Of a DNA stretch of 64,000 bases, positions 31,987 to 43,767 are shown piece by piece; the first letter of the stretch is position 1; every line of letters begins with the position of its first letter. The notes beneath the pieces were generated by a model. That model made no database searches. It was not told the DNA's origin and saw only the letters and a program-made list of their open reading frames with translations. The DNA comes from an uncultured Acidobacteriota bacterium (GTDB lineage: Bacteria; Acidobacteriota; Vicinamibacteria; Vicinamibacterales; 2-12-FULL-66-21): contig CAWJYM010000004.1 of assembly GCA_963847125.1 (NCBI GenBank), positions 3,309,663 to 3,373,662 of the forward strand, read 5' to 3'. The translations under genes and the position numbers were made by a program.

Positions 31987-34900
31987 CTAGAAACTCAGCT
32001 TCACGCCGAGCTGGAGCTGACGGGCGTCGTAGGTCGACGTGATCGTGCCGAACGCACCCTGGCTGCGGTTGCCGTTGGGGCCTCGGAAGTTGGATCGATT
32101 CAGGAGATTGAACGTCTCGAACCGAATCTGCAGCCTGGTGTCGTGGCCGACCGGGAGTGTGAAGTCCTTGGACGCCACGAAATCCAGCTGCCAGAACCAC
32201 GGCCCGCGCACGCTGTTGCGTTCGGCGTTGCCGAAGGGCTGGCTGGGATCGGTCGGCAGCACCACGTTGGCTGGATTCAGGTAGCTCGTCACCGAGCTCG
32301 TGTCGCCATAGGGATCGCCGACGACGTTCGGACGGTAGTTGTTCGCGCCGCGGAAGTCCTGCTGAATGCCGGAGACCTGGAAGGCTGCGGCCGGCGTGTA
32401 GACCAGGTTGACCGGTTCGCCCGATGTCATCGTGTTGATGCCGCCGATCGTCCATCCGCCGAGGAGCGCGTCCGTGAGAGCGCCCGCGTCTGACAGCCAC
32501 CGCTGGCCGCGGCCGACGGGCACTTCCCAGACGAAGCTCGTCGTGTTGTTGATCGGCTGATCGTACGGGGAGGTCCCGTAGTCGGCGTCGAGATTGTAAA
32601 AGTCCTGCGGCGCCGGGAAGTTGCCGTTCGGCCCCTCGAGCGATCCGGCCCCGTTGTCCCTGGCCTTCGACCAGGTCAGCGCGTTCAGGAACATCAGGCC
32701 CTGCCGCATCCGGTACTCGTACTTCACCTGCAGGCTGTTGTACCTGGACTTGCCGCCGTTGAAGGAGTACGTGATGTCGGCGAACTCGGGAATCGGGCGG
32801 CGTGCCTGGAGCGGGATGGTTCCCTGCGGATTGTTCGGGCTCGCCTGGTTGAAGTTCGCGAACAGCAACAAGCCGTCTGCACGATTGCCGACGTAGGCGA
32901 CGTCGACGACCATGTTGCGCGCGATCTCGCGCTGGACCGAGATGTAGTAGCTCTGCACCCGGCTCGACCGGTAGTCCTCGGGCATGTAGGTGATATTGGC
33001 CGCCAGCGGGTTGAACCGCGACGGATCCGCGAAGCGATCGGGATATCCCGCCTGCGTGGTCCGGAACGCCGCGTCCAACGGGTTGGTCTGGGTGGCGACG
33101 GCGTTGACGACCTGCGGGCCGTTGATCGACAGGATGTTCGCGGCGCCAGCGCGATGGAAGTGCACGTAGCTCACGCCGTACCCGCCGCGGACCACCGTCA
33201 GCTCGAGCGGCGACCAGGCGAAGCCGAGCCTCGGGCCGAAGTTGTTGCGATCCGGCTGGATGAGCGCCCGATCTTCCAGCGAGCCGTCGCGCGCGAACAG
33301 CATGGCGCGCGCGTCAGGGTCGAAGTTCGAGAGGAGATTGTCCGTCTCCCAGTGCGGCGTCGCGTACTCGTAACGCAACCCGAGGTTCAGCGTCAGGCTG
33401 TCGTTCAGGCGGAAATCATCCTGGACGTAGGTGAAGTGCATCTGCTGGCGAAGGTTGGCTATCAGGATGTTGCTGAGCGCGTACTGATTCCGCAGCCCGA
33501 ACATGAAGTCCGCGAGGTTGTACAGGTTGTTCGCCGCCGCTCCGGCGGGCCGGGTGAACTGTCCGGTGTAGGCGTCCCGTCCGTAGAGCGGGTTGACGTC
33601 CTGCACTTCCGTGCCGATGTGCTGGAATTCGTACCCGGTCTTGAGCGAGTGCCGGCCCGCCACCCATGTGTAGTTGATCTTCGGATTCCACAACTCGGGA
33701 TACTGCCACTGGGGGTTCGTGGCCTGACGCCCCAGATCCGAGAAGCCGGTGATGAGCTGCGTCGGCAGCCCGCCGGCGATTCGCGGGTCGGTGGGAAGAC
33801 CGGCGATCCCGTACGCGTCGAGCGCCCCCTGTGAGCCCAGCGCCAGCGGGTCCTTGCCGGCTCGGGTGCGAGACCAGCCGAACCGCCCTTCGAGCAGGGA
33901 CGTCGCCGAGCGCGCCCACGTGAACCCGGCGGCGAACTGTTTGTTCGCGACGTAGGTCAGCCCGTTCCCGCTCCCGCCCGAGGGCAGCGGCAGCGGCGGA
34001 TTGTCCACGAGCTCCGCGTCGCGATAGCCGAAACGCCCGAACGTCGTCAGGGCCGCATTGATCTGGAAATCGGCCTTCGCGCTGAACTTGTCGGTCGTGT
34101 TGCTGAACTCCTGGAGAATCGAGTAGTTGTTCGACGCGGCGCTCGAGGTCGGGTCCGGCAGCTCCGACAAGACCTTGCGCGCGAAGGAGGTCATCGGAAT
34201 CGGCGCGCCGGCCGGGTACGTGATGCCGGTCTGCGGATTGCGCACCGCCACGGACAGGATGCCCTGGCGCTGCACCGGGTTCGGGATGGTCTGGAACGCC
34301 ACGTTCTTCCGCGTCTGACGGAACCCCTCGTAGTCGGTGAAGAAGAACGCCCGGTTCCTCCGGAACGGCCCGCCGAACGTGAGGCCGAACTGGTCGCGGC
34401 TGAGCGGCGGTTTCTCGCCGTTTGCCGGGAGGAAGAACCCGGTCGCGTTCAGGCTCGTGTCACGGAAGAACTCCCACGCCGCGCCGCGAAAGCTGTTCGT
34501 GCCGCTGCGCGACGCCACGTTGATGACTCCCCCCGCGCTCCGGCCGTACTCGGCGCTCATGTTGTTCGTCACGACTTTGAATTCGGCCACGGCGTCGGGC
34601 GACGGCTGCATCACCTGGTTCGAGAAGCCCTGATTGCTCGTGCCGTAGGCGTTGTTGTCGATGCCGTCGAGCAGGAAGTTGTTCACCGTGCTGCGGAGCC
34701 CGTTGATGTTGAACGAGCCTTCCCGCACCGTCGACGCCGAGCCGGTGTTGAGCGCCGAGAGCCGGACGCCGGGGCTGAGCAGCGCGAGCGAGGAGTACTC
34801 CCGGCCGTTCAACGGCAGCTCGACCGCCTGCTCGCCGGTGATCAGCTGCCCGCGCTGGCTCGAGTCGGTCTCGAGCAAGGGGGACGCGCCGATGACCTCG

Positions 34901-35265
34901 ACCGTCTCGGTGAGCGCGCCGGGCGTGAGCCGCAGATCGACCCGCTGGCGCGCGCCGACCGTGACCTGCACGTCATCCGCGACCGCGACGGAGAAACCCT
35001 GCAGCTCGGCCGACACTTTGTAGCGGCCCACACGGACCGTCATGAACTCGTAGTTTCCATGGTCGTCCGTGACCCGGCTGAGGACGATATTCGTCTCGAG
35101 GTTGGTCAGCGTGACCGTGGCGCCGGGGACGACCGCGCCCGCGCTGTCCTTGATCGTACCGACCACGGAGGCCGTATCGAACTGGGCGTAGGCCTCCGGC
35201 GCGGCGAGCAGCGCGAGGGCGAACGTCAACGTGGCGATTGTGGAGCGTGTCATGCGCGGCACCAT
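31987..35265 (-). CDS. TonB-dependent receptor with N-terminal carboxypeptidase-regulatory-like domain
   Basis: It has a signal peptide (...LLAAPEAYAQ) and a CarboxypepD_reg-like strand pattern (GTIKDSAGAVVPGATVTLTN...TDDHGNYEF). A plug and a long beta-barrel end in LGVKLSF. The start is 35265, 35253 or TTG 35280. Confidence 0.9.
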   Translation of the reverse strand: MVPRMTRSTIATLTFALALLAAPEAYAQFDTASVVGTIKDSAGAVVPGATVTLTNLETNIVLSRVTDDHGNYEFMTVRVGRYKVSAELQGFSVAVADDVQVTVGARQRVDLRLTPGALTETVEVIGASPLLETDSSQRGQLITGEQAVELPLNGREYSSLALLSPGVRLSALNTGSASTVREGSFNINGLRSTVNNFLLDGIDNNAYGTSNQGFSNQVMQPSPDAVAEFKVVTNNMSAEYGRSAGGVINVASRSGTNSFRGAAWEFFRDTSLNATGFFLPANGEKPPLSRDQFGLTFGGPFRRNRAFFFTDYEGFRQTRKNVAFQTIPNPVQRQGILSVAVRNPQTGITYPAGAPIPMTSFARKVLSELPDPTSSAASNNYSILQEFSNTTDKFSAKADFQINAALTTFGRFGYRDAELVDNPPLPLPSGGSGNGLTYVANKQFAAGFTWARSATSLLEGRFGWSRTRAGKDPLALGSQGALDAYGIAGLPTDPRIAGGLPTQLITGFSDLGRQATNPQWQYPELWNPKINYTWVAGRHSLKTGYEFQHIGTEVQDVNPLYGRDAYTGQFTRPAGAAANNLYNLADFMFGLRNQYALSNILIANLRQQMHFTYVQDDFRLNDSLTLNLGLRYEYATPHWETDNLLSNFDPDARAMLFARDGSLEDRALIQPDRNNFGPRLGFAWSPLELTVVRGGYGVSYVHFHRAGAANILSINGPQVVNAVATQTNPLDAAFRTTQAGYPDRFADPSRFNPLAANITYMPEDYRSSRVQSYYISVQREIARNMVVDVAYVGNRADGLLLFANFNQASPNNPQGTIPLQARRPIPEFADITYSFNGGKSRYNSLQVKYEYRMRQGLMFLNALTWSKARDNGAGSLEGPNGNFPAPQDFYNLDADYGTSPYDQPINNTTSFVWEVPVGRGQRWLSDAGALTDALLGGWTIGGINTMTSGEPVNLVYTPAAAFQVSGIQQDFRGANNYRPNVVGDPYGDTSSVTSYLNPANVVLPTDPSQPFGNAERNSVRGPWFWQLDFVASKDFTLPVGHDTRLQIRFETFNLLNRSNFRGPNGNRSQGAFGTITSTYDARQLQLGVKLSF

Positions 35266-35349
35266 AGCAGCCCCCCGCAAAGAGCGTGTAAACGGACACG
35301 ATCCTGTCCCCGTGGGGGCGCGGCGTCAAGGCGAGAGCGAAGGGCCGTG

Positions 35350-36762
35350 TTACCGTGAGGCCGTCGGGACCGACGGCGCCGCCGGCATGCGCAGCGAGAA
35401 GAAGTCCACGAGGCGCGAGGCCGCCGGCGGATCGAGATTGGCGAGGCCCACGAGAATGTACCCGAGCTCCGGATACACGCGGAGATCGCCGTTCATCCCG
35501 GGCGCGCCGCCGCCATGGCCGTAGCGGCGCAGAGCACCTTCCCCCGACGTCCCGAACCCATAGCCGTACTGTTGCGCCTGGGGCTTCGTCGCTTCAGCCA
35601 GCATCTTTTTGGAGATCAGCTTGCCTGATTCCAGCGCCTGTGCGAACCGGAACAGGTCGCCAACCGTCGAGTACCCGCCGCCCGCGGCGGTCCCGCGCCA
35701 TGGCAGCGTGTCCGTGTTCGCGATCCACGCGCCGTCCCTTCTCATGTACCCCGTCGAACGATTGGCGAGTACCTCGGTTTCGGGAAGCGAGTCGGTGGAC
35801 GCCATGCCGGCCGGCTGAAAGACCTTGGTCCGCACGTAGTCGTAGTACGAGACACCGCTGACTTTCTCGACGAGCGCGCCGAGCAGGACGAAGCCGTAGT
35901 TCGAGTACCGATGCTCCGCTCCGGGCTGGTGGACGAGAGCGCGAGAACCGTACAGCGCCAGGTAGTCGCGATGCTCGCGAAGCGTGAGCCGGTTCTTCGT
36001 AAAGTCGGGGCCGAAGATGTCGCCGGTCCCGCCCGTGTGCGTGAGCAGGTGACGCACCGTCACCTTTGACGCCACGTCGACGTTGGGATAGTCCGTCAGA
36101 TGCTTCCCGATCGGATCCTCCAACGCGATCCTGCCCGCTTCGACCAACTGCAGCGTCGCGACCGCCGTGAACATCTTGTTCATCGATCCGATGCGGAACT
36201 GCGTGTCGACCGTGACGGGCGTCTTCGATTCGCGGTTCGCCAGACCGTACGCCCGCTGGAAAAGAACCTTCCCGTTGCGCGCCACGAGGAGAGCACCGGA
36301 GAACCGATCGTTTGTAACCGTTTCCTCGGCGCGCGATGCCAGAGCGTCCAGCGCTTCCCCTTCTGTCAGCCGGGGAAGCGCCAGGTCGGCCGGCCGCGGG
36401 ACGATACGCAGACCGAGATTCGCGATCTTGGGCGGCGTCGCCGAATCGAGCGAGAGCTCGAGCCGCGCCACGTTGTCCCCTGCCCGTTCTTTGACGAGCG
36501 CGACGAGCGTCGTCTCGTCGCTCTTCTCGACGCGTATGAGCTCGAAGCCCCCCGTGTTCTCCCGGAAATTGAGCGTCTGCTCGACCGGCGGCGGCTCGCG
36601 ACGATACGTTTCGTCGAACGACCGAATGCGCTCCCGGTCCCCTGAATTGAAGGCGTTCAACCATGCGGTGAAGACCTTGCCGGGCAGCGTGTCTGGCGCC
36701 GATGGCTGAGCTGGGACAGACGTCGCCAGCAGCAGCGCGAGGATCGTGCAACGTGCGGTCAT
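35350..36762 (-). CDS. Serine hydrolase, beta-lactamase/transpeptidase-like
   Basis: It has a signal peptide and the SxxK motif in IGSMNKMFTAV, with YSNYGF further downstream. Confidence 0.85.
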   Translation of the reverse strand: MTARCTILALLLATSVPAQPSAPDTLPGKVFTAWLNAFNSGDRERIRSFDETYRREPPPVEQTLNFRENTGGFELIRVEKSDETTLVALVKERAGDNVARLELSLDSATPPKIANLGLRIVPRPADLALPRLTEGEALDALASRAEETVTNDRFSGALLVARNGKVLFQRAYGLANRESKTPVTVDTQFRIGSMNKMFTAVATLQLVEAGRIALEDPIGKHLTDYPNVDVASKVTVRHLLTHTGGTGDIFGPDFTKNRLTLREHRDYLALYGSRALVHQPGAEHRYSNYGFVLLGALVEKVSGVSYYDYVRTKVFQPAGMASTDSLPETEVLANRSTGYMRRDGAWIANTDTLPWRGTAAGGGYSTVGDLFRFAQALESGKLISKKMLAEATKPQAQQYGYGFGTSGEGALRRYGHGGGAPGMNGDLRVYPELGYILVGLANLDPPAASRLVDFFSLRMPAAPSVPTASR

Positions 36763-36840
36763 GGGTTGAAGTCCTTCCCTGTCAGGCCAGCAGCAATCCT
36801 AGCCCATCTTCTCTTGCCGATCCTCGACCTCATCGTTAGC

Positions 36841-38127
36841 ATGGGCCGGATGGACCACCAGGGTCCGGCGCGGCCGCGCCTCTCGCGCGAGACGCGGCTG
36901 CTGCTGGTCACGATTCTGGTCGCCATGTCCGCGCTCTGGGCTCTCGCGAGGCTTCGCTTTCCAGAGCGTCAGGCAACGCCGAATCCCGTGGCGCCGCTGC
37001 TGACGCAGCTCGCCGTCTCCCCCGGGTTCGACGATCTTGCGACCCAGGTATCGGCGCTCGAATCGCGTCTGCTGCCGTCGCTCGTGCCGGTCGAGCTTGG
37101 CGGCACGTCCGCGGCGACGGCCCTGCGCGTGCGCGACGACATCGGCGCGACGCTGTTGCCCGGGTCGAATGGCGAGCCCGGCGACGCGCGGCCGGACGAT
37201 TCGAGGATCCTCGCGTATGACACAGTTACCGGACTCGCGCTCGTGCGAATTCCCGGAGCTCCCGCGCCAGAGCTCACTATCTGGTCGCCGCAGCGTCTCG
37301 ACAGGCCGCGCTACCTGTTCGCGGCCGATTTCTCGAACCGCGCGGCTTCCCTGCGGCCGGTGTTCATCGGCCGTCTGCATCCCGCGACGAACCCGGCGTG
37401 GCCGGGTGAGGTCTGGGCGCTCCCCGTTCGGACCGCGGTCGCTCCCGGCGATCTGCTGTTTACGACGGAGGGCGCCCTGGCGGGGTTGATCGTTTCCCAC
37501 GCCGGAACCTTCGCGCTGGTGCCTGGCGAAACCGTGTTGAGCGCCGCGGAACTCTTGCGCGGGCAGGGAGCTGCCCCCGCGGGCTGGCTCGGCATCGAAC
37601 TGCAGGCGCTCACGCCGCCGCTTGCGTCCGCAACGGGCGCGCGCGCCGGCGTCATCGTTTCGCGCGTGCTTCCCGACGGACCCGCGGCTGCGACACTCGG
37701 GGTGACCGACGTGATCGAGAGCGTCAACGGCGAGCCGATCGCATCGCTGGACGACTGGCGGGCCCATGCGGCCCGGATGAGGCCCGGCGGTTCCGTGACG
37801 TTGGGTGTCAGGCGAGGCGCGGAAGTCGTCACGATGACGGTCAAGGCGGCGCCGCCTCCGGGTACGACTCCCCTGCCGCTCGGACTGACGCTGCGGACGC
37901 TTCCACAGGTCGGCGCCGAAGTCCTGCAGGTTGCTGCCCGGTCCGCTGGAGCACATGCAGGCATCCTCGCCGGAGACGTGATCGTTGCGATCGGCGGGAT
38001 CCAGAAGCCGACCAGCGCCCAGGTCGCTCGTGCGTTTGCGGCCTCCCGCGACAATCGTCCCGTGATCGCGGCGATCACGCGGGGGGATCTCCACCGGGTC
38101 GTGGCCCTGGAAAAAGACACGCGATGA
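36841..38127 (+). CDS. Membrane-anchored HtrA-like protein with two PDZ domains; catalytic residues not recognisable
   Basis: It has a TM helix (LLLVTILVAMSALWALA) and a trypsin-fold-like layout (ILAYDTVTGLALVRIP...), but APGDLLFTTEGALAGLI sits where GNSGG is expected. Two PDZ-like segments follow (GWLGIELQ..., GLTLRTLP...GDVIVAIGG). Confidence 0.72.
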   Translation: MGRMDHQGPARPRLSRETRLLLVTILVAMSALWALARLRFPERQATPNPVAPLLTQLAVSPGFDDLATQVSALESRLLPSLVPVELGGTSAATALRVRDDIGATLLPGSNGEPGDARPDDSRILAYDTVTGLALVRIPGAPAPELTIWSPQRLDRPRYLFAADFSNRAASLRPVFIGRLHPATNPAWPGEVWALPVRTAVAPGDLLFTTEGALAGLIVSHAGTFALVPGETVLSAAELLRGQGAAPAGWLGIELQALTPPLASATGARAGVIVSRVLPDGPAAATLGVTDVIESVNGEPIASLDDWRAHAARMRPGGSVTLGVRRGAEVVTMTVKAAPPPGTTPLPLGLTLRTLPQVGAEVLQVAARSAGAHAGILAGDVIVAIGGIQKPTSAQVARAFAASRDNRPVIAAITRGDLHRVVALEKDTR

Positions 38128-39269
38128 TTCCCGATCCGCTCGATGCCAGGCTCGGCCACGTCGCGGAGGCCAGGCGCGGCGGCCCGCGCCGGTGGACGAG
38201 GATCCGGCTGGCGCTGGGGTTGTCCCCGACGCCGGCCCCGGGGCTCGTGCTCCTGCCATTGGGAGTGGCGCTGGGACCATACGGTCTGGGACTCCTCTCG
38301 CCCGGCGTCCTGTCGTACCTGGATCCCGCCGTCTCGGTGGCGATCGCGACGCTGGGCGTCTTCGTCGGGCTTGGTCTGGATGCGAGGCGACCGTATGAAG
38401 GTCGCCTGCTGGCGGCCGCCAGCGTCGAGGGTGCGTTCACGATTACCCTCGTGGGCGCCGGCGTGCTCCTGGCGCTCCGCCTGGCACACGTCGAGGTCGG
38501 TCTCCCGCAGTGGCTCGCCGCGCTCCTCATCGGCATCTGCGCCGCTTCGTCATCGACGGCGGCGATTGAGGGTCCGGATCGTCCCGGCGTGCAGGTCGCG
38601 CGCATCGGCGATCTCGATGACGTATTGCCGATCGTCCTCGGCGCCGTGGCGCTCGCGTCGCTGCGCGAGCTCGAGCAGGGGGCGCTCGCGCTGCTCGCCG
38701 TGCAGTCTGCCGTCATCGCGCTCGCCATCGCGTTCGCCGGGTGGCTGCTCGTGTCCCAGGCCACGTCAGAAAGCGAGCAGCGCGTATTTGCGGTTGGCAC
38801 GCTGCTGCTTCTGGGCGGCACCGTGGAGTATCTGTCTTTGTCGGGGTTGCTGGCCGGCCTCGTCGCCGGTGCTCTGTGGAACGCGGCCGGCGGTCCCGGG
38901 CGGGACCGGCTCGAGCGCGACGTGCGTCACGTGCAGCACCCGCTCGTCGTCCTGCTCGTCCTCGTTGCCGGCGCCCGCGTCGGCGTCTGGCCCGGTCTCG
39001 CGCTGCTCGTGTCGGTCTACCTGCTCTTCCGGATCGCGGGCAAGATGGCCGGCGGCTGGATCGCCAGGCGCATCGCGGGGAGCGACGTACCGCCTGGTCT
39101 GGGGCTCTACCTCGTGTCGCCCGGCGTGCTCGCGATCGCGTTCGGTCTCAACGCGATCCAGGCCGCCGGGCCGGATCGCGCCGGGATCGTCCTCGCGGTC
39201 GCGGTCGCCGGGTCGCTCGGCTCGGCGGTGATCTCGCACTTCGTCCATCCGCGGGAGGCGCGGCTGTGA
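38124..39269 (+). CDS. Cation/proton-antiporter-like (Na+/H+ exchanger family) membrane protein
   Basis: It is polytopic and hydrophobic, with a CPA-like N-terminus (LLPLGVALGPYGLGLLSP...DPAVSVAIATLGVFVGLGLD). The start forms an ATGA overlap with the upstream gene. Confidence 0.72.
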   Translation: MIPDPLDARLGHVAEARRGGPRRWTRIRLALGLSPTPAPGLVLLPLGVALGPYGLGLLSPGVLSYLDPAVSVAIATLGVFVGLGLDARRPYEGRLLAAASVEGAFTITLVGAGVLLALRLAHVEVGLPQWLAALLIGICAASSSTAAIEGPDRPGVQVARIGDLDDVLPIVLGAVALASLRELEQGALALLAVQSAVIALAIAFAGWLLVSQATSESEQRVFAVGTLLLLGGTVEYLSLSGLLAGLVAGALWNAAGGPGRDRLERDVRHVQHPLVVLLVLVAGARVGVWPGLALLVSVYLLFRIAGKMAGGWIARRIAGSDVPPGLGLYLVSPGVLAIAFGLNAIQAAGPDRAGIVLAVAVAGSLGSAVISHFVHPREARL

Positions 39270-42019
39270 GGCGCGCGCTCGCCGTCGCACTCGTCATCGC
39301 CGCGATTGTGTGGGTCCGGCAGATCGGCTCGATGGAACCGGATCCGCGGAGCACCGCCCTCGCGATCGGGCTCACGCTCGTTCTGGCGTCGGTGGCCGGC
39401 GACCTGCTGCGCCGCTTCCGCCTGCCGCGCCTGACGGGCTACCTGCTGTTCGGCCTCGTGGTCGGCCCCTATCTCGCGAACCTGATCACCGAGCCGATGG
39501 TGCGCCAGCTTCAAGCGATCAACGGCATCGCGACGACGCTGATTGCGTTCATTGCGGGGCTCACGCTGAACCTGGAGCGTCTCGGCCGCCGCCTGGCGGG
39601 GATCGCGAAGCTGACGCTGACGATCATCGCGATTGCCATGAGCGGGCTGTTCGCGCTTGCCTGGCTCGCCTGGCCGTGGCTGCCGGTCGCCCCGGACGCC
39701 GCGGGACTGCCAAAGCTCGCGATGACCGTCCTTCTCGTGATTATCGTCGTCAGTTTCTCCCCGACGATGACCGCGGCGGTCATCTCCGAAACGGGAGCGC
39801 GCGGCCGGTTGAGCGATCTCGTCCTTGCGATCGTCGTGTTCGCGGATCTCGTCCTCCTCGTCCTGTTCTCGCTGTCGATGCAGCTTGCGCGGACCGCGTT
39901 CGGGGCGCCGGGCGAAGACGTCAACGTCCTGATGCGGCTGGCGTGGGAAATCGGCGGCGCCGCGGCGTTCGGCAGCCTCGTCGGGGCGCTCTTCGCCCTT
40001 TACCTGAAGTACATCGGGCGCGAGATTACGCTCGTGCTCATAGCGGTCTGCGCGCTGCTCAGCCAGGTCGGCTTCACCCAGGGTCTCGAGCCCCTGCTCG
40101 CGGCGATGGCGGCCGGCATCGTGATCGAGAACCTTGCGGTCGCGCAGGGGGACGCGCTCAAGGCTGCGGTTCAGCGCGGCGCGCTTCCGGTGCTCGTGGT
40201 GTTTTTCGTCGCGGTCGGCTCATCGCTGCAGCTCGAGGTGCTCGCCGCGCTCGGCTTCGTCGCCGTCGGCCTGGCGTCCGCGCGGCTCTTGTTGATTTAT
40301 CTCGGCGTGCGCGTCGGAATTCGATTCGCCGACGTCGAGCGCTCCTCGGCGAAGTATGCCTGGACGGGTCTCCTCTCGCAGGCGGGTGTCACGCTTGGGT
40401 TGGCCTCGGTCGTCGCCGCGGACTTTCCCGGCTGGGGCCTCCAGATTCAGATGCTGCTGGTCGCGCTGATCGTCATCCACGAGCTGATCGGCCCCGTCCT
40501 CTTCAGGCTCGGGCTGGCGCAGGCCGGCGAGATCGACGCGAGCGCGCCGCGGCCCCTGATCGTGGTCTCGAACCGGGAGCCCTATCTGCACAACTACGAT
40601 CAGACAGGTCGCGTCACGCACACGGCCGCAACGGGGGGCGTTGCCGTGGCGCTCGACGCGCTCATGCGCGAGCGCGGCGGCGTCTGGATCGCGCACGGCG
40701 CCGGCCGCGCCGATCGGGATGTCGTCGACGCCTCCGACAAGGTGCGCGTGCCTCCGGACAGCGCCTCGTACGATCTGCGTCGTCTGTGGCTGGAGGACCG
40801 TGAGTTCTCGGCGTATTACGCAGGATTCGCCAACGAGGGCCTCTGGCCGCTCTGTCACCTCGTCGACGTGCGTCCGGTGTTTCGCCCCGAGGACTGGTCG
40901 GCATACCAGTCGGTGAACGCGCGCTTCGCCGCGGCGATCGACGAGGAACTGGCGTCGTTCGAGACGCCGGTGTTCATCCAGGACTATCACCTCGCGCTCG
41001 TCGCGCCGCGCCTCCGCGAGCGCCGGCCGGCCGTTCGCACGGCGCTCTTCTGGCACATCCCGTGGCCCTACCCGGATCGCCTGCGCATCTGTCCGTGGCG
41101 GCGCGAGCTTCTCACCGGCCTTCTCGCGAACGACCTCCTCGCGTTCCAGCTCGAGCGGGATCGCCGGAACTTCGTCGCGGCGGCCGAGGAGGAGCTCGAC
41201 GCCGAGATCGAAGCGAACGGCGCGATCGTGCGCTTCGAGGGCCGGCCCACCACGGCCGTGTCGGTGCCGATCGGGGTCGACTACGATCGTATCCAGTCGG
41301 CGGCCGCCGATCCCGCGCTCGCAGACGAACAGCGGAGGCTCGCGCAGGCATTCGGGCTGGGCGCGCCGATTCTTGGCCTCGGCGTCGACCGGCTCGACTA
41401 CACGAAGGGCATCCCCGAGCGCCTCGCCGCGCTGGACCTCCTGCTGACCATGCGGCCGGAGCTGAGCGGCCGGTTGACCTTCGTGCAGATTGCCGTCCCC
41501 TCGCGGTCGGAGCTCGAGAGCTACAGCGCGATCGCCTCGGAGATCGCCAGGCGTGTCGCGGACATCAACGCCCGCCACGCCAAGCCCGGCCTGCCGCCGC
41601 CCGTCTACTACCACAAGGGCGCGCTCACCATGCCGAGCCTGGTGGCGCTCTACCGGCTGGCGCAGTTCTGCGTCGTCAGCTCGCTGCACGACGGGATGAA
41701 TCTGGTCGCGAAGGAGTTCGTGGCGGCGCGGGACGACGAGGATGGCGTCCTGGTCCTGAGCGGCCTGGCGGGCGCAGCGCACGAGCTGCGGGATGCGCTG
41801 ATCATCAACCCGTACGACATCGAGGACTTCGCCAACGCGCTGACCCGCGCCCTGGACATGCAACCCGACGAGCGGCGTGCCCGGATGCGCGCGATGCGGC
41901 GCGTCGTCGCCGGCCGCAACGTGTTCGGCTGGGCGTCGGAGATCCTGGAAGGATTGGAGAGCATCTGGACCAAGCCGCTGCAGTACGCGGCGCGGGCGCC
42001 GGAGGACGCGCCGGTCTAA
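39266..42019 (+). CDS. otsA: Fusion protein: cation/proton-antiporter-like membrane domain + trehalose-6-phosphate synthase (GT20)
   Basis: The GTG start 39266 (GTGA overlap) gives 917 aa. The first ~430 aa are CPA-like (LTGYLLFGLVVGPYLANL...AFIAGLTLNLERL). From ~40553 there is a full OtsA domain (LIVVSNREPY, GLWPLCH, IQDYHL, VDRLDYTKGIPERL, SLHDGMNLVAKEF, LIINPYD). The 1092-aa ORF in the track is an upstream extension. Confidence 0.85.
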   Translation: MRRALAVALVIAAIVWVRQIGSMEPDPRSTALAIGLTLVLASVAGDLLRRFRLPRLTGYLLFGLVVGPYLANLITEPMVRQLQAINGIATTLIAFIAGLTLNLERLGRRLAGIAKLTLTIIAIAMSGLFALAWLAWPWLPVAPDAAGLPKLAMTVLLVIIVVSFSPTMTAAVISETGARGRLSDLVLAIVVFADLVLLVLFSLSMQLARTAFGAPGEDVNVLMRLAWEIGGAAAFGSLVGALFALYLKYIGREITLVLIAVCALLSQVGFTQGLEPLLAAMAAGIVIENLAVAQGDALKAAVQRGALPVLVVFFVAVGSSLQLEVLAALGFVAVGLASARLLLIYLGVRVGIRFADVERSSAKYAWTGLLSQAGVTLGLASVVAADFPGWGLQIQMLLVALIVIHELIGPVLFRLGLAQAGEIDASAPRPLIVVSNREPYLHNYDQTGRVTHTAATGGVAVALDALMRERGGVWIAHGAGRADRDVVDASDKVRVPPDSASYDLRRLWLEDREFSAYYAGFANEGLWPLCHLVDVRPVFRPEDWSAYQSVNARFAAAIDEELASFETPVFIQDYHLALVAPRLRERRPAVRTALFWHIPWPYPDRLRICPWRRELLTGLLANDLLAFQLERDRRNFVAAAEEELDAEIEANGAIVRFEGRPTTAVSVPIGVDYDRIQSAAADPALADEQRRLAQAFGLGAPILGLGVDRLDYTKGIPERLAALDLLLTMRPELSGRLTFVQIAVPSRSELESYSAIASEIARRVADINARHAKPGLPPPVYYHKGALTMPSLVALYRLAQFCVVSSLHDGMNLVAKEFVAARDDEDGVLVLSGLAGAAHELRDALIINPYDIEDFANALTRALDMQPDERRARMRAMRRVVAGRNVFGWASEILEGLESIWTKPLQYAARAPEDAPV

Positions 42020-42109
42020 CTCCCTAACAGCCCGTGGCTAAAGTCCTCGATAGGGACCCAACACGGGTCTCTTTCGCCCGTTCGGTCCATCAGCGCATGC
42101 GCGCCGGAT

Positions 42110-43036
42110 TCACTGCTGTAATGTGGCCGCGAACGCGCGCACTTCACGAAGAACGTCGGCTTCGTTCGACAAGAACATAAACAGATTGGCGTCGGGGAGC
42201 TCGACAATCCGCGCGGTGGGAACGCCGGCGAGCAAGTCGCGCTGCCATTTCGAGAGCCGCGCCCGTTTGCCCGCATAGGCCTGGTTCAATGCCGCACGCT
42301 GTTCCTCATGTATCGGCGGATAATCTTTGAGGGTCTGTTCCATCGTTTCGGTTCGATAGATCGCGAGAACGGGGACGCGGATTCGCGCGTAGTCAGGCCG
42401 GACCTTGTTGTCGTCGACGATTGCCTTTCGAATTGCGGGGTCGAGCGGCCACTCGGCCATCTGACGTCGTTCGCCCTCCGGAAACGTGACCGGTACTGAC
42501 TTGCCCACCTTGGCAGGCATGTGCGCTAGGACCTGCGCCACATCGACTGAAGCGAGGCCGTAATCCGCCATGGAGAGCGTCGGGTCCTCGGCGGCATCAA
42601 GGTAGACGAGGCCGCCCAAGCGATCAGGATGTTGGGCGCCGAGGGTGTGCAAAATATCGCCGCCACACGAGTTCCCGATGAGAATTGGCTTCTGCATGCC
42701 GACCGCGCCGATCACCTCGAGGATGTCGTCGGCCCTGCGCTGCGGATCGTATCCCGTCGCAGGGTGATCCGAGGCGCCGACGCCGCGCCGGGTGACGGCG
42801 TACACGCGAAACCGATCGGTCAGCTTCGGCGCGATGTTGTCGTAGACATGTCCAGTGACGTAGCAACCCACAAACAGAATCGGTCGTCCGGTTCCGCCCC
42901 AATCCAGCACTTCCAATCGAACGGACGACTCGACCGTGACGAACCGCACTTGGTGAAGCGACGGATCACGCCAGGTCGTGCCCGACTGCGCAGCGAGCAA
43001 ATAGAGTCCCACGATCAGCGATGTCGCAGAATCCAT
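42110..43036 (-). CDS. Alpha/beta hydrolase
   Basis: VLDWGGTGRPILFV and the nucleophile elbow GNSCGG are present. The length is typical, with a signal-like N-terminus. Confidence 0.8.
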   Translation of the reverse strand: MDSATSLIVGLYLLAAQSGTTWRDPSLHQVRFVTVESSVRLEVLDWGGTGRPILFVGCYVTGHVYDNIAPKLTDRFRVYAVTRRGVGASDHPATGYDPQRRADDILEVIGAVGMQKPILIGNSCGGDILHTLGAQHPDRLGGLVYLDAAEDPTLSMADYGLASVDVAQVLAHMPAKVGKSVPVTFPEGERRQMAEWPLDPAIRKAIVDDNKVRPDYARIRVPVLAIYRTETMEQTLKDYPPIHEEQRAALNQAYAGKRARLSKWQRDLLAGVPTARIVELPDANLFMFLSNEADVLREVRAFAATLQQ

Positions 43037-43071
43037 GCGGCGGATTATAGCGGCGCCTTAGAAGGAGCCCT

Positions 43072-43767
43072 TTAGCTACGGGTTGCTAGGCCATCCGAGA
43101 GCAGCCGTTCGACCACTTCGATCACGCCTGCGCCGGCGGAACCGCCGGTCACGAGGCGCGCGCGACTCTTGAGGGCCGGGATCGCGTTGGCGACCGCAAC
43201 GCCGTAGCCGCACGCCTCCAGAAATGCGTGATCGTTCTCGGCGTCTCCCATGCCGACCACGCTGGCCGCCGGCAACTTCAGGGCGGAGAGCGCGTGACGA
43301 AGCCCGGTGGCCTTGTTGACGCCCGACGGCAGGATCATCACGGCGCCCTTGTTGAAAATGATCTCGAGCTCGAGCCCGAGCTCGCGAATGGCTTCCAGCA
43401 CGCGCGCCTCCTGAGGCTCTCTGGTCGCGACGATCACGCGACCGACGGAGAGCGGGACGACGTTCTTCTGCCGGAGGAGGTCGAGGAATGGCCCGCTCGG
43501 CGCCTCGCCGAGCGTTCGCTCGTCGCCGGTGTCGGGTCGATGCAGCAGTCCGCCGTTCTCCGCGACAACGCGATCGAAGATCGCGAGCGCCGGGCAGACC
43601 CGCTTCAGATCGTCGAGCTCGCGGCCGGTCACGAGGAGAAGCCGGAAGCCGGAGTCCTTCAACCGGTTCAGCGCGTCGAGGACGGCGGGGTCTACGCTGC
43701 CTCCGGTGGCCAGCGTGTCGTCGTAGTCGACGGCGAGCGCGCGAAACCGATTCGAGTTGAGTGTCAT
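43072..43767 (-). CDS. HAD-IIB family phosphatase (candidate sugar-phosphate phosphatase)
   Basis: HAD motif I (AVDYDDTL), VTGR, and motif IV (GMGDAENDHAFL) are present. Confidence 0.8.
   Translation of the reverse strand: MTLNSNRFRALAVDYDDTLATGGSVDPAVLDALNRLKDSGFRLLLVTGRELDDLKRVCPALAIFDRVVAENGGLLHRPDTGDERTLGEAPSGPFLDLLRQKNVVPLSVGRVIVATREPQEARVLEAIRELGLELEIIFNKGAVMILPSGVNKATGLRHALSALKLPAASVVGMGDAENDHAFLEACGYGVAVANAIPALKSRARLVTGGSAGAGVIEVVERLLSDGLATRS

Follow-up and report, generated by a model that had tools for sequence, protein, structure and literature searches.

The 64,000-nucleotide window analysed here, positions 3,309,663 to 3,373,662 of contig CAWJYM010000004.1 from an uncultured bacterium of the Vicinamibacterales (Acidobacteriota; assembly GCA_963847125.1), contains a gene in which a cation/proton antiporter (CPA) membrane domain and a GT20/OtsA-type trehalose-6-phosphate synthase are encoded in one uninterrupted frame of 917 amino acids (39266..42019, forward strand). 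The fusion gene is the last member of a conserved, translationally coupled three-gene operon (36850..42019), in which it is preceded by genes for a predicted PDZ-domain pseudoprotease and for MID, a polytopic membrane protein with the predicted fold of a CPA antiporter. OtsA and a CPA core in such a covalent and operonic combination are undescribed: a literature search found no paper on a CPA-OtsA fusion, in agreement with an earlier interpretation made from the letters of the window alone (the sequence-only reading), which had known of no characterised example. It appears somewhat better than an even bet (a probability of about 0.55) that in this three-gene module the ion or proton state of the membrane core sets, or is coordinated with, the attached synthase.

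Trehalose ranks among the main compounds that protect soil bacteria from drying and salt, and the switching-on of its synthesis at the protein level is poorly understood. Escherichia coli OtsA is stimulated by K+ salts, a response for which we know of no sensor. The arrangement described here points to a possible physical link between the status of the membrane, or of the ions across it, and the synthesis of a stress-protectant sugar.

A conserved fusion of an antiporter domain and OtsA

Translation of 39266..42019 gives the single CPA-OtsA frame that the sequence-only reading had proposed, and both halves are recognised by Pfam. The CPA domain comprises residues 1-425 (39266..40540), of which residues 39-406 (39380-40483) match PF00999 (Na_H_Exchanger) well above the cut-off (E 5.5e-23; 81.9 bits against 26.2; profile positions 2-363 of 375). 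The linker and GT20/OtsA domain follow at 40541..42019, with residues 431-898 (40556-41959) matching almost the whole of PF00982 (Glyco_transf_20; E 8.9e-110; 368 bits against 32.5; profile positions 3-472 of 473), and the OtsA motifs LIVVSNREPY, IQDYHL, VDRLDYTKGIPERL and SLHDGMNLVAKEF all lie within the 917-aa product. The CPA-to-GT20 linker is short, at ~24 residues (~15 after the last membrane helix). G+C content around the three-gene locus in the window is 65-72%.

More than 120 protein clusters, at 72-96% identity, share this two-domain architecture of ~918 residues and both Pfam domains. Relatives of the fusion are encoded in at least 114 species genomes, nearly all labelled as metagenome-assembled genomes (MAGs) of Vicinamibacterales or Acidobacteriota. 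A sample of 121 genomes from the same order, each at least 90% complete and together representing 17 families, contains 24 that encode the whole fusion, from query residue 1 to ~900+, in one frame (49-100% identity), and the fusion occurs in seven of the 17 families. Conservation extends to the membrane domain, whose mean column identity is 73%, and to the junction, which is short and reads '...LFRxGLARAGELDAxxxRPLxVVSNREPY' in 36 orthologues.

This conservation bears directly on whether the fusion is real. An indel in a long-read metagenome assembly could join two separate genes, and the sequence-only reading had pointed to a possible sequencing error at 40500-40560; that explanation can be dismissed with near certainty, since hundreds of assemblies made independently, by different projects and on different platforms, contain the same unbroken ~918-aa frame, and the conserved junction contains neither a stop codon nor a start-site signal.

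OtsA orthologues free of the membrane domain (61-67% identity) are encoded in ~19 genomes, and start exactly at the fusion junction. In a tree of the OtsA domain, from which the mistranslated rows L101, L102 and L113 were disregarded, the backbone is unresolved and the fused sequences are not monophyletic with respect to the free orthologues, suggesting at least one extra fusion or fission. Three loci at ~69-71% identity (L019, L029 and L048) belong to MAGs filed under Bifidobacterium, Gemmatimonadaceae and Acidimicrobiia; their identity and synteny suggest that they probably lie on Vicinamibacterales contigs that were mis-binned or wrongly labelled. Both halves of the fusion have already been named by automatic database annotation, the JGI name being 'trehalose-6-phosphate synthase/Kef-type K+ transport system membrane component KefB'.

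The fusion ends in a conserved tail, residues 899-917 (41960-42016, followed by the stop codon at 42017-42019), with the pattern 'WTKPLxYxxRxxEDxPV', whose last Val never varies in the main clade of fused proteins. Free OtsA orthologues, and the fusions of family f6, end near residues 898-908. The tail resembles a PDZ ligand, and the PDZ domains of the same operon were considered as partners of its C-terminal Val; the idea was set aside as less likely, since the charge distribution of the PDZ protein points to a periplasmic body and the OtsA tail should be cytoplasmic.

The OtsA domain and its likely product

The GT20 domain of the fusion is the sole member of its family in the 6.47-Mb, 100%-complete genome. 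Its best solved relative is the OtsA of Mycolicibacterium thermoresistibile (5jij; E 1e-77), and it is 34% identical to E. coli OtsA, in which glucose-6-phosphate is bound by R9, W40, Y76, W85 and R300, and UDP-glucose by G22, D130, H154, R262, D361 and E369 (PMC1769515). The domain was aligned with OtsA of E. coli K-12 (NC_000913) and with three other fusions. Ten of these 11 residues are identical in the fusion (R9, G22, Y76, W85, D130, H154, R262, R300, D361 and E369, in E. coli numbering), as is K267, while the mapping of W40 is ambiguous, one of two nearby Trp residues being conserved and the other replaced by His. With its substrate-binding residues conserved in this way, the OtsA domain looks active. 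It may best be described as a divergent OtsA, a name that rests on these residues and on gene context.

The gene context concerns the next step in trehalose synthesis. OtsB (PF02358) adjoins the cassette in 36 of 80 related loci, where it lies downstream on the same strand, upstream, or divergently, and it is often a fourth gene on the strand of the cassette; its presence there supports trehalose-6-phosphate as the product of the GT20 domain. The genome under study contains no OtsB by either the PF02358 or the TIGR00685 model. Downstream of the fusion on the reverse strand lies a gene for a HAD-IIB (Cof/SPP-like) phosphatase (43072..43767), which matches TIGR01484 (HAD-SF-IIB; 79.8 bits against a cut-off of 41.8) and the Pfam families Hydrolase_3 and S6PP. 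This protein, too, matches neither PF02358 nor TIGR00685, and OtsB is a member of the same HAD subclass. The HAD-IIB gene abuts the stop codon of the fusion in L001, a relative at 96% identity. This position, together with the lack of OtsB in the genome, makes the HAD-IIB protein a plausible candidate trehalose-6-phosphate phosphatase, replacing OtsB non-orthologously. The sequence-only reading had placed a HAD-IIB phosphatase here and suggested the same role; the family assignment stands and the role gains support from the missing OtsB, while the linkage to the cassette is confined to the three closest loci.

TreS and TreY are also encoded in the genome (G000:C4:1731047-1732651 and G000:C4:1315474-1318437; 918 bits each, above the cut-offs), so the fusion would be its only de novo route to trehalose, and not its only route. 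Three trehalose routes therefore coexist in this genome, though it has no OtsB.

The membrane domain of the fusion

The subfamily of CPA proteins to which the membrane domain belongs is large and uncharacterised; most of its 5,232 representatives (E ≤ 1e-3) are proteins that stand alone and are 420-470 aa long. Its residues were mapped onto KefC through a MAFFT alignment bridged by 86 stand-alone relatives, using the published roles of the essential KefC Asp156, of Gln155 and of Lys307 in transmembrane helix 11 (PMC11150392). KefC Asp156 corresponds to Asp194 of the fusion (codon 39845-39847, forward strand) and Lys307 to Arg340 (codon 40283-40285, forward strand). Both residues are invariant in 26 fusion proteins, and in the stand-alone relatives the first position is Asp in 78 of 86 and the second Arg in 85 of 86. 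The unwound 'SST' segment of KefC becomes Ser165-Pro166-Thr167. On this mapping the core of an ion site is present in the fusion, in an atypical form.

Direct comparison is less informative: an hhalign alignment of the CPA domain with KefC alone was weak, and a single-sequence phmmer search of the domain against the PDB returned only designed armadillo repeats, which are spurious. Pfam finds no TrkA_N/RCK domain in the fusion, the C-terminal domain being GT20. By analogy with 13-helix CPA proteins, we infer that the C-terminus of the fusion is cytoplasmic, as the substrates of OtsA require.

The same CPA subfamily is also found joined to other C-terminal regions that match no family, in P0192, P0211, P0216, P0128, P0203 and P0193 (P-numbered proteins are from a representative library). 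These proteins have lengths of 763-923 aa (763, 876 and 923) and of 1,400-1,530 aa, and one of them contains an AAA_16 segment. The CPA membrane module seems, from these architectures, to have been reused with different cytoplasmic partners.

MID, a second protein with the CPA fold

MID is a polytopic membrane protein of 381 aa (38124..39269, forward strand). It matches no Pfam or NCBIfam model, Pfam returning nothing even at E values up to 10, and BLASTP detects no similarity between MID and the CPA domain of the fusion. An AlphaFold2 model built on 70 orthologues (pLDDT 86.8) gives a different picture: in a Foldseek search of the PDB, the best 50 of 63 matches at E ≤ 0.001 are all CPA antiporters, among them SOS1, SLC9C1, NapA, KefC, NHA2 and NhaP, with a best E value of 1.6e-7 and TMq of up to 0.66. 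Profile comparisons of MID with the CPA domain of the fusion (E 0.0023) and with KefC are weak and colinear. MID is therefore, on the evidence of the model, clearly a highly divergent protein of the CPA-antiporter fold. The description of this protein as CPA-like in the sequence-only reading is borne out at the level of the fold, though not by family models. Two candidate positions for an ion-site acid can be named: position 165, which is Asp in 40, Gly in 22 and Glu in five of the 70 sequences, and position 163, which is Asp or Glu in 65 of 70. MID relatives (E ≤ 1e-8) were found in 12 of 201 genomes of the phylum, namely the genome under study, seven others of the order and four from two other families.

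The PDZ pseudoprotease

The first gene of the operon (36850..38127, forward strand) has an open frame from a TTG at 36766, and alignment with 66 orthologues indicates that the likely start is the ATG at 36850, rather than 36841 or 36766. Its product, numbered here from the TTG at 36766, consists of a transmembrane helix (aa 41-64; 36886-36957), two protease-like β-barrels (~aa 106-265; 37081-37560) and two PDZ domains (PDZ1, aa 274-360, 37585-37845; PDZ2, ~aa 372-448, 37879-38109), the PDZ domains being matched by the Pfam families PDZ_2, PDZ and PDZ_6. A model built by AlphaFold2 on 67 orthologues (pLDDT 88.2) is matched by Foldseek to DegQ, DegP and HtrA over ~400 columns (E 2.5e-20).

The catalytic apparatus of these proteases has been lost. 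The sequence APGDLLF (aa 226-232) stands where E. coli DegQ has its GNSGG box, and the DegQ nucleophile Ser214 aligns with Pro227, a position that is Pro in 46 and Ala in 10 of the 67 orthologues. Within the protease-like region (aa 95-265) there is no conserved His, no column having this residue in more than 21 of 67 sequences, and no conserved Ser; the only triad-type residue kept is Asp152 (63 of 67). A match to Pfam Trypsin_2 falls short of significance (E 0.055). Lacking a conserved His or Ser, the protein is, as judged from its orthologues, a catalytically dead, HtrA/DegQ-like pseudoprotease, and the replaced serine box and absent histidine box noted in the sequence-only reading hold across the family. 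The bias of Lys plus Arg around the transmembrane helix (4.2 on the N-terminal side against 2.6 on the C-terminal side) suggests an N-in orientation with a periplasmic body, as in DegS.

A cassette that exists with and without OtsA

The three genes are joined by four-base overlaps, which the sequence-only reading had also described: ATGA at 38124-38127, where the start of MID overlaps the stop of the PDZ gene, and GTGA at 39266-39269, where the GTG start of the fusion overlaps the stop of MID. A scan of the operon for promoters and terminators, and a search with Rfam, returned nothing above chance. The arrangement is retained in relatives, the PDZ gene lying upstream of the fusion in 77 of the 80 loci and MID in 78; the PDZ/MID junctions are mostly 4-bp overlaps, and the MID reading frame mostly ends four bases inside the start of the fusion. 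In one locus (L016:4825-8748) the MID frame continues in frame into the fusion ('...VLCASPERGRVRQLLALALAV...'), giving an open reading frame (ORF) of 1,308 aa, which is either a real triple fusion or the result of a long-read indel at the GTGA overlap. Similar apparent triple fusions of MID and the fusion gene in L063 and L066 are artefacts, produced by an out-of-frame, Arg-rich extension.

Stand-alone CPA homologues from the same order (48-53% identity; L090-L093) likewise have MID and PDZ genes upstream, with overlapping junctions. On this comparison PDZ-MID-CPA is a unit in its own right, and some families have added OtsA to it. The neighbours of the unfused cassettes, which include IscR/IscS, cytochrome c and FecCD genes, offer no functional hint. 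One genome encodes both forms, a fused cassette at G009:C96:35521-38250 and the unfused cassette of L093 at G009:C100:90000-99000, and directly upstream of the latter is a divergent OtsB gene (PF02358, E 5.7e-34). This neighbour hints that the cassette may be tied to trehalose metabolism even when unfused.

Two proteins from outside the lineage bear on the relation between MID and the CPA domain. In P0151 (835 aa) the N-terminal half is MID-like (hhalign probability 98.5%, E 1.4e-15) and the C-terminal half is of the same CPA subfamily, and P0140, a stand-alone relative of the CPA domain, follows a 417-aa gene without a Pfam match, with a 4-bp overlap. As Rosetta-stone evidence, the tandem and the gene pair suggest a working partnership between MID and the CPA domain, in the form of a heteromeric exchanger core. 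The CPA exchangers described to date are homodimers according to PMC11150392 and PMC12072577.

Genes flanking the operon

A segment of 1,063 bp (42025-43087) between the fusion and the HAD-IIB gene is missing from L001. As the HAD-IIB gene directly abuts the fusion stop there, the segment is, on this comparison, a recent insertion or deletion between close relatives. It carries a gene for an alpha/beta hydrolase (42110..43036, reverse strand).

Upstream of the operon, a 470-aa ORF on the reverse strand (35350..36762) occupies the same place beside the cassette in L001 and L002 only, among the 80 loci. L073 has a weak match to it (30%) at another place, and at the equivalent position in L082 there is an unrelated gene matching Pfam Beta-lactamase. 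Beyond this lies an ORF resembling a TonB-dependent receptor, also on the reverse strand (31987..35280), with an N-terminus that by eye is carboxypeptidase-regulatory-like.

Proposed working of the module and its alternatives

In the working favoured here, the two CPA-fold parts would form a heteromeric, exchanger-like core. The OtsA domain would hang on the last helix of the mobile part of this core, on the cytoplasmic side and in the position of the KefC RCK domain, so that the module would make trehalose-6-phosphate from UDP-glucose and glucose-6-phosphate at the membrane. Synthase activity would be set by, or coordinated with, the ion or proton state or the conformation of the exchanger core, and the periplasmic PDZ protein would possibly provide a further input. 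Where OtsB is adjacent in relatives it would remove the phosphate; in the genome under study the neighbouring HAD-IIB protein probably does so. The broader proposal of the sequence-only reading, that ionic or osmotic status is wired to compatible-solute synthesis, is plausible.

Several observations weigh against this working. The position of KefC Gln155 is Ala193 in the fusion, invariant throughout the fusion family (an 'AD' motif) and Lys, Ala or Met in stand-alone relatives, whereas functional exchangers have Asp, Asn or Gln there (a DD, ND or QD motif). A profile search of the CPA domain against solved structures gave only a marginal match, to MjNhaP1 (E 0.075). Together these two results mean that the CPA domain may not transport ions. 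The acidic residue of MID at the equivalent of the ion site is only partly conserved. In the enzyme, the TIGR02400 equivalog score of 420.3 bits is below the cut-off of 564.85, as is the PRK14501 score (456 against 634). The genome has TreS and TreY routes to trehalose as well, and the HAD-IIB gene, which lies on the other strand, accompanies the cassette in L001, L002 and L075 alone among the 80 loci. Lastly, relatives have each half on its own, as OtsA orthologues without the membrane domain (61-67% identity) and as PDZ-MID-CPA cassettes without OtsA, so that the coupling of the two halves is an add-on and not a necessity.

Coupling could also run in the opposite direction, with OtsA serving as an RCK/KTN-like regulatory domain of the exchanger, such that the binding or turnover of UDP-glucose, glucose-6-phosphate or trehalose-6-phosphate gates K+/H+ or Na+/H+ exchange, and ion efflux comes after the change from ionic osmolytes to sugars. 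The Rossmann-like halves that make up a GT-B enzyme close when ligand binds, which would suit such a role. So would the placing of OtsA after the last core helix, where KefC has an RCK domain that contacts both the core and dimer domains (PMC11150392). The CPA domain moreover keeps Asp194 and Arg340, and PDZ-MID-CPA is autonomous without OtsA, so the membrane part presumably has a function of its own. Yet the catalytic residues are all kept in what is the sole GT20 of the genome, which suggests that the domain has an enzymatic role as well, whatever else it does; KefC has a much longer linker; and the 'AD' motif makes transport competence doubtful. Regulation of the exchanger by OtsA thus appears unlikely, although it and the favoured working are not mutually exclusive. 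Alternatively, the CPA fold could be a mere anchor or scaffold that neither senses nor transports ions and keeps trehalose-6-phosphate synthesis on the inner side of the membrane, where it might, for example, protect a drying membrane or supply a trehalose-consuming pathway associated with the membrane. The degenerate ion-site motif at Ala193, the great divergence of MID and the fusion of the CPA subfamily to several unrelated C-terminal regions, as if it were a general membrane-docking module, are all in keeping with passive tethering. A simple anchor would, however, need neither ~13 helices with an invariant buried Asp and Arg, nor partners such as a PDZ protein and another CPA-fold subunit translated along with it, all of them conserved across families. 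The membrane domain is also highly conserved in sequence (mean column identity 73%), and we regard this explanation as improbable.

A further alternative concerns the product rather than the coupling. The GT20 domain might make another sugar-phosphate, such as glucosylglycerol-phosphate, on which the HAD-IIB protein would then act; the GgpS model also matches the domain (279 bits), the OtsA models stay below their equivalog cut-offs (420 against 564.85 for TIGR02400), and the genome is without OtsB. This is very improbable: the OtsA model scores far above the GgpS model, the glucose-6-phosphate residues R9, Y76, W85 and R300 are conserved, and canonical OtsB flanks the cassette in 36 of 80 relatives. 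The favoured working, in which the membrane core influences the synthase, can also be extended, in a version that we consider doubtful, to all three proteins acting as one transmembrane stress-to-metabolism transducer. Here an obligate CPA-fold heterodimer, with one degenerate member, would have largely lost bulk exchange and become a sensor of ions, pH or membrane state, the PDZ domains of the pseudo-HtrA protein would read envelope stress, and the short linker would switch the synthase. Were this true, the module would be the first heteromeric CPA assembly, and OtsA the first metabolic enzyme known to be directly controlled by an elevator-type transporter fold.

Comparison with known systems and significance

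An abundant and mostly uncultured soil lineage has joined a trehalose-6-phosphate synthase covalently to an ion-exchanger fold, and several of its families have retained this arrangement along with the PDZ pseudoprotease and the additional exchanger-like subunit. Were the coupling regulatory, it would provide a model, open to direct testing, for the coordination of ionic and sugar osmolytes. Apart from OtsA, the paired CPA-fold genes and single-chain tandems suggest that heteromeric CPA exchangers may exist, against the homodimers described in PMC11150392 and PMC12072577.

The fusion resembles the soluble OtsA/TPS enzymes (E. coli 1GZ5/1UQT; M. thermoresistibile 5JIJ) in its full-length GT20 domain, its conserved substrate residues and, in many relatives, its OtsB neighbour. 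It differs from them in being joined to a membrane domain of ~425 aa, in its extra conserved C-terminal tail, in falling below the NCBIfam equivalog cut-offs, and in belonging to a genome without OtsB.

KefC and KefB (PDB 8BXG; PMC11150392) offer the closest parallel in layout, having a CPA domain and, beyond its last core helix, a Rossmann-type domain in the cytoplasm. The essential Asp (D156, here D194) and the basic residue of transmembrane helix 11 (K307, here R340) are kept, and the gene for the accessory subunit of KefC, kefF, overlaps kefC. In contrast to KefC and KefB, the fusion has an enzyme in place of the RCK/TrkA_N domain, and it differs from KefC in having 'AD' instead of 'QD' and Arg instead of Lys. 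KefC is a homodimer, whereas the fusion is co-translated with a second, divergent CPA-fold gene, and the sequence similarity between the two is marginal.

The PDZ protein shares with DegS, DegQ and DegP a predicted fold of two β-barrels and two PDZ domains over ~400 columns, and has the N-terminal anchor of DegS. Unlike these proteases it has lost the catalytic His and Ser throughout its 67 orthologues, with Pro at the position of the nucleophile, and its gene shares an operon with transporter-like genes.

Plant SOS1 and sperm SLC9C1 (TMq 0.63-0.66; identity 14-18%) are the structures that the MID model matches best, and they illustrate how commonly CPA cores come under the control of cytoplasmic domains appended to them. 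Those domains are regulatory, binding cyclic nucleotides or sensing voltage, and are not metabolic enzymes, and both proteins are homodimers. Should the coupling in the fusion prove regulatory, a metabolic enzyme would join the cytoplasmic domains that act on CPA cores, alongside the RCK domain of KefC and, in SLC9C1, those for cyclic nucleotides and voltage.

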